64,000 nucleotides of DNA. Source: Candidatus Poribacteria bacterium (GTDB lineage Bacteria; Poribacteria; WGA-4E; JAJDTR01). The DNA is taken from the NCBI GenBank assembly GCA_028820655.1, contig JAPPIK010000006.1:303154-367153 (forward strand), written 5' to 3'. Shown here one piece after another: positions 13,922 to 59,556 of the stretch. The notes under the pieces were generated by a model, which had not been told where the DNA came from, did not search any database, and saw nothing but the letters and a program-made list of their open reading frames with translations. The translations under genes were made by a program, and so were the position numbers. Within the stretch, counting starts at the first letter, position 1. The number at the start of each line of letters is the position of its first letter.

Positions 13922-14272
13922 ATGAATGTCGGCATCCGCCGTAAGGAAGGGGTAACAGTTTTAGACATTGAAGGGAGAGTTATCGGATCCGAAAGCTTCG
14001 CGCTAAAAAGTATTATCGATGATGAGATTCGTAGCCTCCAAGACGGCGAGGTGAAAATGCTGCTAAACATGGGGCAAGTGCGTGCGATGGACAGTTCCGG
14101 CCTCGGAATCATCATTGCCGCCTACACATCTATCCAACGCAGGGGCGGACGAATCGCCTTACTGAATGTCAGCGGGAACATCAACAGTCTAATCGTGGTG
14201 TCGAAACTTGTGACCATATTTGACAGATATGATGATGAAGAGAAGGCGATTCTATCGTTTCATGAAGCCTGA
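13922..14272 (+). CDS. STAS-domain anti-sigma-factor antagonist (second copy)
   Basis: 116 aa. LLNMGQVRAMDSSGLGIIIAAY...GGRIALLNVSGNINSLIVVSKLVTIFDRY has the canonical DSSGLG phospho-serine motif. Confidence 0.88.
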   Translation: MNVGIRRKEGVTVLDIEGRVIGSESFALKSIIDDEIRSLQDGEVKMLLNMGQVRAMDSSGLGIIIAAYTSIQRRGGRIALLNVSGNINSLIVVSKLVTIFDRYDDEEKAILSFHEA

Positions 14273-14360: not shown

Positions 14361-15179
14361 GTGAATTCAGCAACAGAAATTAAAGAGAGCCCCGACGGGT
14401 TATGGCACAAATGCGACGGTTGTGATGAACTTGTGTTCAGGCAAGCGTTAGAGCGCAATCTGTATATTTGTCCCTCTTGCGGATATTATCTTCCCGTTCC
14501 GGCAGAACAACGGTTGAACCAGATATTTTCAACGAATTCATGGATAGATCTTTTCCCCGACTCTGCGCCTCAATCATTGCTCGAATCTCTGGATTTGGCA
14601 GACCTGGTTTCCCAAACCGTCTGCCCGGACTTGCCGGAACGCGTTATAGCCGCCGGTGAGGGAGAGATTTCAGGTTGCTCGACCATTCTCACTGTTATAC
14701 ACCCCCTTGCGCCCCCGCAGCGATTGCATTTCGTCACGCTGCTGATTGCGATCCGAACCGCTTTGATGAAGGCGCTTCCACTGATAGCCGTTTATTCAAA
14801 CGATGCGGTGTCCAAGATGATTGCGGCAGATGAGCCAACCGCCCCCGAGTTGTCGTTCGCCGAAATCACCTACCTTTCAACCGAAATGGCGAAACTATCG
14901 GAAACGCGGCTCCCGCAGATAACCGTGCTGACAGACGCAAACGCCCGTTCGCTATCAACGAGGTTTCCAATTGGAGACATCATCCTCGTTGAAGATTCAA
15001 ACTCGTCAACCGGAGTATCGGAACGCCAACCGCCCATCACGGACGCACGGCGGAAGGCGGAAAGCCGTTCGGTGTCATTGAACGGAGAGGCGTTCGTAGA
15101 TCACTACGTTCCGCGCGAGGCGCTTCCCGAAACTTTAGGCAACCTGCTCGGTTTCTTTGCGAAGACGCGAGGAACCTAG
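14361..15179 (+). CDS. AccD-like protein (carboxyltransferase beta homologue) with intact zinc ribbon and degenerate catalytic motifs
   Basis: GLWHKCDGCDELVFRQALERNLYICPSCGYYLPVPAEQRLNQIF aligns with E. coli AccD [44 protein letters not shown]. Colinear later blocks are PQITVLTDANARSLSTRF versus PYISVLTDPTMGGVSASF. Where AccD has GGSMG and SGGARMQE, this protein has PPQRL and SNDAVSKM. Confidence 0.7.
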   Translation: MNSATEIKESPDGLWHKCDGCDELVFRQALERNLYICPSCGYYLPVPAEQRLNQIFSTNSWIDLFPDSAPQSLLESLDLADLVSQTVCPDLPERVIAAGEGEISGCSTILTVIHPLAPPQRLHFVTLLIAIRTALMKALPLIAVYSNDAVSKMIAADEPTAPELSFAEITYLSTEMAKLSETRLPQITVLTDANARSLSTRFPIGDIILVEDSNSSTGVSERQPPITDARRKAESRSVSLNGEAFVDHYVPREALPETLGNLLGFFAKTRGT

Positions 15180-15284
15180 ACCATGAGTCTGTAAGCAAAT
15201 AAACACAGGAACCCGTTTGAAGATTTATTGGCGGCTCCGGGATTTATCCCGTAATTGCGCCGCTCGTGATTGGAATTTGTGCAA

Positions 15285-33403: not shown

Positions 33404-33620
33404 GCGAGTCTTGCGCTCTCAAATAACACCTTCTCCAAAGTAAGTGATAGAGTGAAAAACGAGTTGCGAAATGAGGGAATCGTATCGTTACGCAAAACGG
33501 CGTACTCTGTACCACAATCTGTTGGATTGAAATCGCAATCTGCTGGTTTGCGGTACGAGAGTGTTACCGGTTGATAGCATTATTCCGACAGGGACAGTGG
33601 CACGCTCTCACGTATTAAAT
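33404..33620. repeat. single copy of the structured repeat found in tandem at 58.6-59.3 kb
   Basis: About 215 nt colinear with 58795-59000: ..GCGCTCTCAA(A/G)TAACAC.TTCTCCAAAGTAAGTGATA.AG.GAAAAACGAGTTGCGAAATGAGGGA.TCGTATCGTTACGCA.AA.GGCGT.CT.TGTACCACAATCTGTT.GATTG...CGCAA.CT..C.G.TTTGCGGTACGAGAG.GTTAC... Confidence 0.7.
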
Positions 33621-56708: not shown

Positions 56709-57073
56709 GGCATACTCCTTTCTATATTGAATTGGGGGGTCCATTATATCATCGCCGGAAGGTATTTGCAATGCGTCGCCTTACCGGCACGTATATTTCA
56801 GTGGGAGCGGGCTCCCGCACGCTCAGAAACCGAGTCTTCTCTTCAGAACAGAATATTTTCTGCACTCCTGTAGGGCGGATTATCTCTTATCAAGTCCCAG
56901 ATTCAGACGATCACCAAGAAGCGACATCCGATAGGTTGGGCAAAACTCGATGAAACCGGACTTCCGTGTCATGTAACGCCCCTTAAAAGGCCGCAATGCG
57001 CAGATATGGGCTTGAAGTGTAAGTTGTGACTCGGTATACGTCTCTAGCATTCTGTAATCGAAGGGAGGTTCAA

Positions 57074-57351: not shown

Positions 57352-58204
57352 ATGAACCATTTTCCCGATGAACGTGCATGCCTCACGTTTTCGGATGAGA
57401 TACGGTGCAAAGATGTGGCATTCTGCCCATTCTGTGCGAGTACCAAAGGAGATCGGAACAAAAAGAACAATCAGGTTAACCAATGGAATCCTTACGACTG
57501 TTCCTCCGTTTTTTGAGTGTCGCATGGCACACTTATCCAAGGCTCGAAAGTGCCGCTCAAGGCATTTATTTGTCATGCTTATGCTCAACGCGAATAAAAG
57601 TGAATCTAGTCATCAATTCTGACGTGATCTCGGCTTGAATCGTAAGACCGCATGGTACAGGCAAGATCGGAGGCGACGGCTAATGAAAGATGATGATTGG
57701 ACGATTCTTAAGTGAATAGCCGAAGCGGACGAGACCTATATGGGCGGGAAACCACGACAGGGAAACTAACGCGAGAACGACCACAAACCGAGAGGACTAG
57801 GCGGGACTACTAAGACACCAGTAATAGGATTGGTTGAGCGAGGCGGGAAATTGACAGCCAAGATGGTTGATAGCGTGATTAATGACCGCATGAAGGAATT
57901 AATGATTCTGAACATGTCATCACCCCAATCTACGCTCATGACTGACGAGAGTCCAATCTATTACTTCGTGGACGGGTTAATGAAGCATAAATCGGTTAAT
58001 CATAACATCCAGTATGTGGACGGGGCTCTTCATACTAACACGATTGAGGCGTTCTGGAGCCTGCTCAAGCGGGCTTGGCACGGAATACATCATCACTATA
58101 GCAAACGCTACAGGCCACTTTATGTGGCTGAAGCATGTTATAAGAACAGCCATCAAAACACCGAGAGCCTGGTTGATGCGTTCATTCGGGATTACTTTTC
58201 TTAG
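57352..58204 (+). mobile_element. IS1595-family (ISXO2-like) transposase gene, decayed by frameshifts and an in-frame stop
   Basis: Zinc-ribbon start MNHFPDERACLTFSDEIRCKDVAFCPFCAST. A second frame carries the ...SKARKCRSRHLF... segment. AEADETYMGGKPRQGN is followed by a TAA stop. An intact DDE C-terminus follows (VIGLVERGGKLTAKMV...LMTDESPIYYFV...HKSVNH...VDGALHTNTIEAFWSLLKRAWHGIHHHYSKRY). No terminal inverted repeats identified. Confidence 0.7.
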
Positions 58205-58406: not shown

Positions 58407-58570
58407 AAGTGGTGTAGCTGCCTAGTATTCAATAACAATATCACTTTTTGAGAGAGGGAATCAACCTATTCGGCGGATTTATGGATACTCTTTCCACGTT
58501 CTTGCGTTTGACGATCTTCCGAATTTTCTGCTCATGCGCCAATTCCAAGCGAAATATAGGATTCCTACCA

Positions 58571-59345
58571 AGTAACACTCAACATTGCACTCCTCTGGAG
58601 TGCGGAGATTGGGCGCATCACGATTCTATTGACATGGCACTCCGCTGGAGTGAAAACCAGACCACGAAGGAACACTATTACGGCCAGTCATAGAGCGAAA
58701 AATTAACGTATCCCGCTGATGGATTGTGATCCGCAAACTAACAGTTTGCGGTACAAGAGTGTTACGTGCTGAATGAATTATTGCGACAGGGATAATAGCG
58801 CGCTCTCAAGTAACACTTTCTCCAAAGTAAGTGATACAGCGAAAAACGAGTTGCGAAATGAGGGACTCGTATCGTTACGCATAATGGCGTGCTGTGTACC
58901 ACAATCTGTTAGATTGTGATCGCAAACTAACAGTTTGCGGTACGAGAGCGTTACTTGCTGAAAGAATTCTACCGGCAGGGATAATGGGACGCTATCAAGT
59001 AACAGTTTTTCAAAACCAATCTTAGAGAAGGAAATCTGTACCACAATCTGTTAGATTATGATACGCAAACTAACAGTTTACGGTACAAGAGTGTTACCTG
59101 CAGCATGAATTATTCCGACAGGGATACTGTCACGCTCTCAAGTAACACGCGACATTGCACTCCGCTGGAGTGCAGGAATTAAGCTCGTCGTAATCTACAG
59201 ACATCTGGGATCTCTATGGGACTTCTATCGCCTTCGCTGGTCGCTTAGTTGATTCTATTCAGTCGCTTGATCCTCTGGAGCGAGGAACCAGTGTTACTTC
59301 TGGGATGAATTATACCGCCAAGGACAATGGCGCGCTCTCAAATAC
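58571..59345. repeat. tandem array of about four ~110-nt highly structured repeat units with variable spacers, plus GCACTCC.CTGGAGTGC hairpins and an embedded family B copy
   Basis: The unit is GTACCACAATCTGTTAGATTGTGATCGCAAACTAACAGTTTGCGGTAC(A/G)AGAG(T/C)GTTAC..(~45 nt)..GCTCTCAAGTAACAC. Units sit at about 58708-58816 (5'-truncated), 58897-58996, 59038-59148 and 59281-59345 (partial). Hairpins sit at about 58588, 58636 and 59155. The family B copy is at 59207-59274. Confidence 0.75.
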
Positions 59346-59556
59346 CGGATTCGGACAATCGTCAATTCACGCCATCCAATGGGTTCGGTCATATACCCTG
59401 TAACGCAACGCTCGCGTCTTGGATAGCCCCTCAAATAGCTTGAACCGCCACGAAGATTCTGTTAAACTCAATCGGCATTTACAGACCCGAATCTCACAAT
59501 GAAATCTACTCAAACGGCTATAATATAACTGGAGGGATAACTACAAGGAGGAAATT

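Follow-up and report, generated by a model that had tools for sequence, protein, structure and literature searches.

A probable BIME-type repeat cluster and a RAYT-like transposase gene in a genome of “Candidatus Poribacteria”

The stretch of DNA analyzed here (the window) comprises 64,000 nucleotides of “Candidatus Poribacteria” DNA, positions 303154 to 367153 of contig C22 in a 5.88-Mb source genome of 61 contigs (assembly GCA_028820655.1; referred to as G000). Genomes of relatives are designated G001 upward, loci extracted from relatives and genomes carry L numbers, and C numbers with coordinates refer to G000 contigs. Window positions 58564 to 59343 hold a co-oriented array of four composite units, assembled from modules that we call A, B, C, D, L, and X, and a solitary unit is found at 33416 to 33612. 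The array occupies the spacer between the cytochrome c and HIT genes, which measures 2.7 kb in G000 versus 246 to 579 nt in nine relatives from the same genus; the extra 2.4 kb consist of the remnant of an IS1595 element plus the array. As argued below, this locus is very probably a cluster of the bacterial interspersed mosaic element (BIME) type, formed by repetitive extragenic palindromes (REPs), and thus a variant, specific to this lineage, of a familiar class of bacterial repeats, whose cognate gene, encoding a protein similar to REP-associated tyrosine transposases (RAYTs), can be identified elsewhere in the genome. From left to right, the array consists of the tail of a C module, D, D, X, a truncated B, C, A, B, C, L, B, C, D, a decayed interior, and C, which can be abbreviated as D(24)D(62)BCABCLBCD(116)C. 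Its components and two other features of the window are as follows.

58564 to 58578, plus strand: left terminus, CCTACCAAG followed by TAACAC; the final 14 to 15 nt of a C module whose body is missing upstream.
58579 to 58653, plus strand: two D modules (58579 to 58603 and 58629 to 58653), T(C/T)(A/G)ACAT(T/G) plus the hairpin GCACTCC-NCT-GGAGTG(C).
58654 to 58720, plus strand: X linker, AAAACCAGACCACGAAGGAACAC...GTCATAGAGCGAAAAA..., homologous to L and to the start of A.
58721 to 58754, plus strand: truncated B module, the remnant GGATTGTG of its first REP (REP1), then an intact second one (REP2), CGCAAACTaacAGTTTGCG, and GTAC.
58755 to 58816, plus strand: first copy of the C module, AAGAGTGTTAC...CTCTCAAGTAACAC, 92% identical to the family consensus, with its best match on another contig.
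58817 to 58895, plus strand: A module, a 79-nt spacer with CGAGT-13 nt-ACTCG, one of 17 non-overlapping A matches genome-wide.
58896 to 58943, plus strand: second copy of the B module, a head-to-head heterodimer of two tagged REPs.
58944 to 59005, plus strand: second copy of the C module.
59006 to 59037, plus strand: L linker, TTTTTCAAAACCAATCTTAGAGAAGGAAATCT; L, B, and C form a 143-nt unit that is found in tandem at other loci.
59038 to 59086, plus strand: third copy of the B module, with G-to-A changes in both 3' arms; its predicted fold favors one long stem.
59087 to 59148, plus strand: third copy of the C module.
59149 to 59173, plus strand: third copy of the D module, GCGACATT plus GCACTCCGCTGGAGTGC.
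59174 to 59287, no strand assigned: degenerate interior of the last unit, with another dispersed repeat (approximately 59207 to 59274, reverse) and a decayed D hairpin (59271 to 59286).
59288 to 59343, plus strand: fourth, terminal copy of the C module; the similarity stops at ...GCGCTCTCAAA|.
33416 to 33612, plus strand: solitary unit, consisting of the terminus CTCTCAAATAACAC, A (33430 to 33508), a decayed B (33509 to 33556), and C (33557 to 33612); ABC at C22:336584-336767.
57830 to 58204, plus strand: truncated open reading frame (ORF) of an IS1595-family transposase, matching DDE_Tnp_IS1595 (E value 6.9e-20) over only positions 43 to 151 of the 153 in the profile.

An earlier note, based on the letters of the window alone, had described a tandem multi-hairpin array with variable spacers at 58571 to 59345, and such an array is indeed there, with small corrections. 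The statement that about four units share one core holds for two full cores (58896 to 58943 and 59038 to 59086), of the form GTAC-CACAATCTgttAGATTGTG-AT(A)-CGCAAACTaacAGTTTGCG-GTAC, and one truncated core (58721 to 58754) that lacks most of hairpin 1, but not for the fourth unit, which has no core. The module bounded by GTGTTAC and GTAACAC is present four times, at 58755 to 58816, 58944 to 59005, 59087 to 59148, and 59288 to 59343, the G-to-A changes in both hairpins of unit 3 are seen in AGATTATG and AGTTTACG, and the three GCACTCC(G/T)CTGGAGTGC hairpins are located at 58587 to 58603, 58637 to 58652, and 59157 to 59173. The spacers do differ in length, but their sizes are 79 nt (58817 to 58895) and 32 nt (59006 to 59037) rather than 80 and 42 nt. 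The 79-nt spacer recurs, together with core and tail, in the solitary copy at 33416 to 33612, and the ORF at 57830 to 58204, with its partial profile match, bears out the decayed IS1595 element next to the array. This remnant does not belong to the repeat family, although it lies within the same 2.4-kb lineage-specific insert, 360 nt from the array.

Each module has a recognizable consensus. The D module consists of T(C/T)GACATT and the hairpin GCACTCC-GCT-GGAGTGC. Three related linkers, X, A, and L (approximately 65, 79, and 32 nt), all begin with TTT(T/C)TC(A/C)AA; the consensus of X was derived from 72 units without B. The B module is a 48-nt double hairpin, GTAC-CACAATCTgttAGATTGTG-AT-CGCAAACTaacAGTTTGCG-GTAC, and the C module, of approximately 62 nt, reads GAGAGTGTTACTTGCTGAATGAATTATTCCGACAGGGATAATGGCGCGCTATCAAGTAACAC; the four C copies of the window are 78 to 85% identical to the reference copy. 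A different small repeat, GGGATCTCTATCGCGGTCGCTATCCACTCCCTTGAT, found in reverse at 59207 to 59274, at C31:103875-103915, and at several array ends, splits the 5' arm of D hairpins, always entering after TCGACATTGC, which makes it a nested insertion of one repeat family into another.

Genome-wide BLASTN, suggested in the earlier note as a way to collect further copies, shows that the modules recur throughout G000. Combined with profile searches, it gave 156 non-overlapping copies of B, 188 of C, and 237 of D, present as singletons or in approximately 100 clusters that reach 1.35 kb. Within any one cluster the modules are always co-oriented and follow a strict grammar: units of the types L-B-C (143 nt), A-B-C (approximately 190 nt), and D-(24)-D-(55-62)-(B)-C are joined head to tail in any order, and architectures such as BCLBCLBCLBCL (C46:19-578), D(24)D(55)C, and ABC are repeated across many clusters. 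Tandem L-B-C units are also found at C8:1-367. According to crude ORF calls (the genome is 80% coding), intragenic copies number only 12 out of 144 for B and 11 out of 183 for C, so that 92 to 94% of the copies are intergenic (132 of the 144 for B). The orientation of the clusters relative to the flanking genes is unbiased, with both genes co-oriented in 59 cases and both opposed in 78.

Several clusters are located at contig ends (C8:1-367, C14:1-995, C46:19-578, C58:2-421, and C35:3-83), as expected for assembly-breaking repeats, and these arrays probably cause assembly breaks in this metagenome-assembled genome (MAG). At C8:11069-39254, the approximately 1-kb paralogues of a 28-kb tandem gene array are separated by REP2 hairpins, twelve in total, which are single, tagged with GTAC, and all oriented the same way; these copies evidently multiplied together with the gene duplications. 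A much longer array comes from G002, where a region of approximately 4 kb (G002:C1:5062266-5066206) contains at least 12 units at 142-nt spacing and far exceeds any array in G000. Some terminal C modules run into the AAGGAGG-N-ATG of a co-oriented gene (C8:312, C8:1605, C34:60972, C24:97264, and C58:7635), where part of the ribosome-binding region thus comes from the end of the repeat. A general role of the C end as a supplier of ribosome-binding sites was considered and rejected, as an ORF begins no more than 70 nt away from only 17 of 85 terminal copies, and not many of these cases are convincing.

The B module is a head-to-head (HH) heterodimer of two REP hairpins. Both hairpins have an 8-bp stem, a 3-nt loop, and an unpaired outer GTA(C/G) tag. 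In the copy at 58896 to 58943, REP1 reads GTAC-CACAATCTgttAGATTGTG on the plus strand and REP2 reads GTAC-CGCAAACTgttAGTTTGCG on the minus strand; REP1 agrees with the reverse complement of REP2 at 19 of 23 positions, and the tags are outside, as in two inverted REPs. G000 contains 110 copies of REP1 and 129 copies of REP2 within 3 mismatches of the consensus. The five bases preceding the hairpin are TGTAC in 55 REP1 and 64 REP2 copies, CGTAC in 26 REP2 copies, TGTAG in 13 REP1 and 10 REP2 copies, and CGTAG in 6 REP2 copies. In the relatives TGTAG is the commonest sequence before REP2 (76 copies), which suggests that GTAG is the form of the wider order and that the GTAC variant predominates in this genus.

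Among 40 relatives searched, the whole B+C unit is present in all ten members of the genus, members of two other families of the order show weaker matches to B only, and 11 genomes have no match. The form of B in the other families is 51 to 57 nt long, GTAG-CACAA(T/A)CTgttAG(A/T)TTGTG...CGCAAACTaacAGTTTGCG-(C/G)TAC, that is, GTAG-hairpin 1...hairpin 2-CTAC. B occurs throughout the poribacterial order, and C and D were detected only in this genus or its close relatives. An exact-pattern scan of 185,579 species, one genome each, returned at least 109 matching stretches; among the matches listed, all are from “Candidatus Poribacteria” MAGs (including the relative G003, OZ242354.1), except for one MAG labeled “uncultured bacterium.” The stems of B are kept across the order, with 97.6% of cells paired. 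A single compensatory change, U:A to A:U in REP1, separates families (eight copies), and all the remaining standard-pair variants are G·U.

A candidate for the enzyme that recognizes these REPs is encoded at C23:14483-15200. Its 238-aa product matches the NCBIfam model NF047646 (REP_Tyr_transpos, “REP-associated tyrosine transposase”) with an E value of 8.1e-18 and a score of 64.7 bits, matches Escherichia coli TnpA-REP (PDB 4ER8) with an E value of 1.4e-4 over 44 residues, and contains the readable motifs ANHVHVVF and ESYDHSVR. The Pfam Y1_Tnp search, which detected seven genes in G000, missed this one; it was reached through locus L105 of the relative G009, one of 109 poribacterial loci, where a Y1-like ORF ends inside a B dimer (GGT ACC GCA AAC TGT TAG). 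The C23 gene is the orthologue of that ORF (80.6% identity over a 180-residue tblastn match) and is present in G000 in a single copy, with one tblastn match at 80% and the other Y1 genes at no more than 34% identity. Copies of REP2 surround it at 14270, 14336, and 14404 upstream and at 15264 and 15354 downstream, where there is also a decayed dimer, and one more copy lies within the gene at 14937.

The same association is seen in the relatives. Orthologues with at least 62% identity were found in 11 of 41 genomes, in one or two copies each; all 11 of these genomes carry B, and none of the 11 B-free genomes encodes an orthologue. An exact REP2 is present in 8 of the 11 orthologue loci (G000 and 7 of 10 relatives), which come from three families, and in none of the 25 other Y1-transposase loci. 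In G035, the orthologue is flanked on both sides by B dimers. A RAYT-like gene accompanied by its REPs is the defining REP-RAYT arrangement.

Some of these genes have REPs within their coding regions. The REP2 inside the G000 gene (C23:14937-14963, equivalent to L175 938-964) is in frame and codes for ..EEPQTNSLLYN..; it occupies the same position in G000, G008, and G035 and a nearby one in G029. In G009 (L105 2266-2330 and 2556-2603), the internal REP is split by another small repeat, and the TAG stop codon is located in the hairpin loop of a B dimer. Other Y1 genes (L053, L054, L056, L058, and L061; genomes G003 and G012) are flanked by GTAG hairpins of their own, such as GTAG-GTGCGGTTtccAACCGCAC and GTAGTA-GGCACACtccGTGTGCC, and several parallel REP-RAYT systems therefore appear to exist in Poribacteria.

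If the B hairpins are the cognate REPs of the RAYT-like protein, they would matter as single-stranded DNA of the tag strand and not as RNA, and the mismatches in their stems bear on this point. We wrote each REP tag first and counted G·T and A·C mismatches on the tag strand at all single-mismatch stem positions. The G·T:A·C ratios, which count copies rather than independent events, are 29:9 for REP1 and 23:8 for REP2 in G000 (52:17 in total) and 18:2 and 12:9, respectively, in the relatives, and the excess of G·T is spread across most stem positions. Strand-symmetric mutation would predict equality, and a single transcript would predict the same strand for both REPs. Since the two tags of a dimer are on opposite strands, the favored strand flips within one unit, and one transcript cannot explain the excess. 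The suggestion in the earlier note that the two G-to-A changes of unit 3 reflect selection on a minus-strand RNA thus does not generalize: the excess follows the tag strand of each hairpin genome-wide. It fits selection or amplification of the hairpins as tag-strand single-stranded DNA, the substrate of a RAYT, and we regard it as supportive, not conclusive. For E. coli TnpA-REP, the single-stranded REP hairpin of the tag strand is the established substrate (PMC3479197).

The same mismatch pattern speaks against the first of the two possibilities raised in the earlier note, a family of structured noncoding RNAs, either processed hairpin RNAs of approximately 110 nt or cis-regulatory or terminator structures in the mRNAs of neighboring genes. 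Several features do favor such RNAs. The units, as single strands, fold far better than shuffled sequences on either strand (z scores of -4.6 to -4.9, with 0 of 200 shuffles equal), the inner stem of C has a conserved U·G pair with C-G and U-A variants, and some terminal C copies adjoin AAGGAGG-ATG gene starts, as described above. However, the search of Rfam 15 with the array region gave nothing at gathering score, and the best matches at E values up to 10 scored 10 to 23 bits versus cutoffs of 40 to 100 bits, in agreement with the opinion in the earlier note that this is not a named RNA class. The scan for promoters and terminators gave signals at the level of shuffled sequences, the clusters lie in either orientation relative to genes, and the array is not kept at the orthologous loci of the nine relatives.

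Covariation, assessed with RNAalifold, pair counts, and mutual information, was likewise absent. Pairing in the five helices amounts to 91.0% for 32 complete B+C units, versus 91.2% in shuffles, and the covariation score of these units was reached by 368 of 500 shuffles; in 185 C copies, the paired cells equal the independence expectation at every pair, and the strongest mutual-information pairs are not helix partners. Pairing at this level points to neutral decay from a consensus that happens to be palindromic, with copies drifting to unpaired states at the neutral rate. In view of all these results, a multicopy structured RNA is very unlikely. The sole Rfam family detected in the window is the large bacterial signal recognition particle RNA at 1306 to 1572 (RF01854, 186 bits).

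The other possibility in the earlier note, a nonautonomous mobile element that amplifies in tandem, was essentially right, with the qualification that the element appears to be of the REP/BIME type and not a derivative of an insertion sequence (IS). None of the nine genus relatives has the window array in its orthologous spacer, and comparison of 109 loci from relatives with G000 revealed many presence/absence differences between species. Two of these cases are clean. A D-D-X-C unit at C31:103853-104068 is filled in G000 and empty in L161, and two units fill the site C18:50768-51132 in G000 and also in G003, with five species having it empty; in both cases, there is one CT(A/C)(C/T)(C/T)AAG at the empty site and one at both ends of the filled site. 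In filled/empty comparisons at C60 and C15, the junctions were too diverged to read, and rearrangements in the surrounding region, among WD40-repeat genes, make the orthologue comparison unreadable for the 33.4-kb solitary unit. The 2.4-kb insert of the window as a whole is bracketed by diverged copies of an approximately 100-nt sequence (56889 to 56990 and 59337 to 59440), which is single in G003; only about 50 nt can be aligned between them.

The phase of the units can be read from the array ends. At the start of approximately 35 arrays in G000, unique DNA gives way to CTMTCAAG-TAACAC (M stands for A or C), and the similarity between terminal C copies most commonly ends at ..CTMYCAA(G)| (30 of 85 by a crude score), whereas internal copies continue into TAACAC. 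The true unit is therefore TAACAC...CTMTCAAG, and the 10-bp “closing stem” of C spans two adjacent units. The stretch of about 50 to 70 nt immediately upstream of the window array (TTTTCTGCTCATGCGCCAATTCCAAGCGAAATATAGGATTCCTACCAAG, 58500 to 58572) recurs upstream of the unrelated C31 array (C31:103800-103862) and is also present at the empty site of that array in a relative (L161, approximately 800-871). It is a further dispersed module with the same CCTACCAAG octamer at its end and may serve as a landing pad.

These junctions can be compared with those of classical miniature inverted-repeat transposable elements (MITEs), which would be deletion derivatives of an IS with a DDE transposase, such as the neighboring IS1595. 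The C module does have 10-bp inverted termini (GTGTTACTTG and CAAGTAACAC), the arrays are bracketed by an 8-nt direct repeat, and the IS1595 remnant is only 360 nt away. However, the inverted termini span two adjacent units, and the bracket, CT(A/C)(C/T)(C/T)AAG, is the same at every locus, in contrast to the variable target-site duplications that the earlier note had proposed to look for. In addition, units are always co-oriented in arrays, and the core hairpins are associated with the RAYT-like gene, not with a DDE enzyme. Among the 0.4- to 4-kb intervals bounded by C arms, one contained ORFs and no C modules; its three ORFs are ordinary and encode no transposase. An origin from a classical IS-derived MITE is thus largely refuted for this genome, where no IS is bounded by C arms, and as an explanation of the family we consider it extremely improbable. 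Two other identities were rejected: an integron attC array, as, by inspection, the R''/R' core sites (RYYYAAC...GTTRRRY) are not in that order, there are no cassettes, and the units are spread over approximately 100 loci, and a clustered regularly interspaced short palindromic repeat (CRISPR) array, as its “spacers” are drawn from a small fixed set.

A more serious competitor, which we nevertheless consider unlikely, is a set of “peel-and-paste” mini-transposons of the IS200/IS605 family, similar to palindrome-associated transposable elements (PATEs), that insert 3' of CTMTCAAG and build arrays by self-targeting. The subterminal hairpins would be D or B on the left and, on the right, the inner one of C, and the end octamer of each unit would recreate the target. 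This scheme would account for the constant unit phase, the octamer plus TAACAC that always follows unique DNA at the left terminus, the prevalent CAA(G) end of terminal C copies, the single octamer at two empty sites, the co-orientation of all units, the star-like pattern in which most units are closest to units of other arrays, and the 10-bp outer stem of C, which spans the unit junction as a circle junction would. However, we found in G000 no autonomous element with matching ends and no TnpB, the seven Y1 genes detected with Pfam have no module within 3 kb, the clean empty sites are only two, and unequal recombination between the 8-nt repeats would give the same picture. The known targets of the IS200/IS605 family are 4 to 5 nt long, and the apparent target here, at 8 nt, is longer.

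On balance it is doubtful that the composite units represent an undescribed self-targeting, single-stranded DNA mini-transposon inserting directly 3' of its own end octamer, and the accompanying suggestion that the stem GTGTTACTTG/CAAG|TAACAC forms only across unit-unit or circle junctions is equally tentative. Were it true, each insertion would supply a site for the following one, so that head-to-tail arrays of mixed units would assemble by themselves, which would offer a concrete mechanism for the origin of BIME-like REP clusters, unexplained since their description, and would imply a Y1/HUH enzyme, the divergent RAYT or another one, with an 8-nt cleavage-site specificity.

The relationships among C copies provide some insight into how the arrays grow. 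The nearest relative of a C copy is found in the same array for 25 of 135 copies, 14-fold above chance yet a minority. The four copies of the window are 75 to 84% identical to each other, 82 to 92% to the consensus, and 84 to 94% to copies on other contigs. Thus, the arrays appear to have formed mostly from separately arriving units, with some local duplication.

Taken together, these data are best explained by the BIME-type reading. The locus would be noncoding, selfish or neutral DNA made of small palindromic modules, in which the B hairpins are the putative cognate REPs of the single-copy RAYT-like tyrosine transposase encoded elsewhere in G000. In this genus, B is contained in units that read TAACAC-(D-D-X, L, or A linker)-optional B-C...CTMTCAAG, with C, D, A, and L as accessory motifs specific to the genus, analogous to the extra-REP motifs found in BIMEs of E. 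coli. The arrays probably grow mainly by head-to-tail addition of units at the CTMTCAAG|TAACAC junction, with a smaller contribution of local tandem duplication, and the unit copies would decay neutrally after addition. The RAYT-like protein, or another enzyme acting on single-stranded DNA, presumably moves the units, and any effects on the host (termination, mRNA stability, or protein binding) would be incidental.

Several observations count against this interpretation. The tag in this genus is GTAC instead of the canonical GTAG. The RAYT-like protein has no Pfam match, its NCBIfam score of 64.7 bits is below the curated cutoff of 80 bits, and the REP2 copies flanking the G000 gene are in direct, not inverted, orientation. 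The orthologue is absent from 5 of 10 genus members (G001, G003, G004, G006, and G007), where many well-preserved arrays remain, as well as from the B-rich genomes G039, G024, and G018; some of these RAYT-less genomes, including G003, are single-contig assemblies. A RAYT is therefore not needed for persistence of the arrays, and it has only a putative role in the spread of C-type units. The D-D-X-C units contain no B-type REP and so have no evident RAYT substrate. Finally, the filled/empty junction pattern comes from two clean loci only, and either an 8-bp duplication of a preferred target or a deletion between 8-nt repeats would give an identical picture.

If the interpretation is correct, its implications concern both the distribution of REP systems and the way their clusters form. 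Most known REP/BIME-RAYT systems belong to Proteobacteria and a small number of other phyla. A complete system in uncultivated sponge symbionts, comprising tagged REP dimers, a cognate RAYT, and mosaic clusters, would indicate a wider distribution, with a REP pair kept almost letter for letter across an order; the literature that we searched contained no link between Poribacteria and REP elements. The only mildly novel point is that composite units are apparently added site-specifically, at a fixed junction. The constant CTMTCAAG|TAACAC junction, together with the empty sites in sister species, offers a testable handle on REP cluster formation. The comparison of G·T and A·C mismatches on the tag strand is a cheap way to discriminate between single-stranded DNA and RNA functions. 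In practical terms, such arrays mimic CRISPR arrays or RNA genes, and their recognition prevents false annotation.

Other modular repeats provide useful points of comparison. BOX elements of Streptococcus pneumoniae, boxA-boxB(n)-boxC, resemble the poribacterial units in being modular and intergenic, with upwards of 100 copies, a variable internal module, strong predicted folding, and no encoded protein. However, they are not known to have an associated RAYT or tagged REP hairpins, and the sequences and phyla are unrelated. PATEs lack DDE-type terminal inverted repeats, contain subterminal hairpins, insert beside a fixed short sequence, and are co-oriented. The poribacterial units share all these features, at least in appearance as far as the fixed insertion sequence is concerned, but have an apparent target of 8 nt and no autonomous partner with the same ends; to our knowledge, arrays of mixed unit types have not been described for PATEs.

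The resemblance to REP systems is closer. As in the REPIN-RAYT system of Pseudomonas (Bertels and Rainey, 2011, PMC3116915; PMC3337134), the unit comprises two inverted REPs, the RAYT or RAYT-like gene is single-copy, inheritance has been long-lasting and for the most part vertical (across an order, in the present case), and REPs persist or decay where the RAYT is absent. In contrast to REPINs, the poribacterial dimer forms part of larger composite units that also include other modules, and several RAYT-less genomes still hold many well-preserved arrays.

According to the passages of Di Nocera et al. (2013, PMC3733652) on which we draw, REPs of the GTAG super-family have stems of 5 to 13 bp and loops of 2 to 20 nt, form HH heterodimers, and occur as dimers tandemly reiterated with flanking DNA. 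The 8-bp stem and 3-nt loop of the B hairpins fall within these ranges. Also shared, judging by the same passages, are the outside tags, the HH dimer of different stems that can fold as two hairpins or as one stem, the tandem reiteration of dimers with flanking DNA, and REPs located within ORFs or providing a stop codon. The difference from the dimers in those passages is that the poribacterial partners are 2 to 3 nt apart in this genus and approximately 8 to 11 nt apart in the other families; Poribacteria are absent from the species that these passages name.

The comparison with the E. coli REPs, BIMEs, and TnpA-REP (PDB 4ER8; PMC3479197) shows both the extent and the limits of the similarity. 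The REPs of this genus are tagged with GTAC and those of the rest of the order with GTAG, the C, D, A, and L motifs are unrelated in sequence, longer, and rich in hairpins, and the units are of fixed phase with a constant CTMTCAAG|TAACAC junction. The RAYT-like protein is divergent: approximately 70 aa are inserted behind its first strand, and its ORF contains a REP. Nevertheless, both systems feature short tagged palindromes in hundreds of intergenic copies per genome, alternately oriented REPs combined with conserved nonpalindromic motifs in tandemly reiterated mosaic clusters, and a single-copy gene for a Y1/HUH transposase, a candidate one in Poribacteria, flanked by the same REPs.

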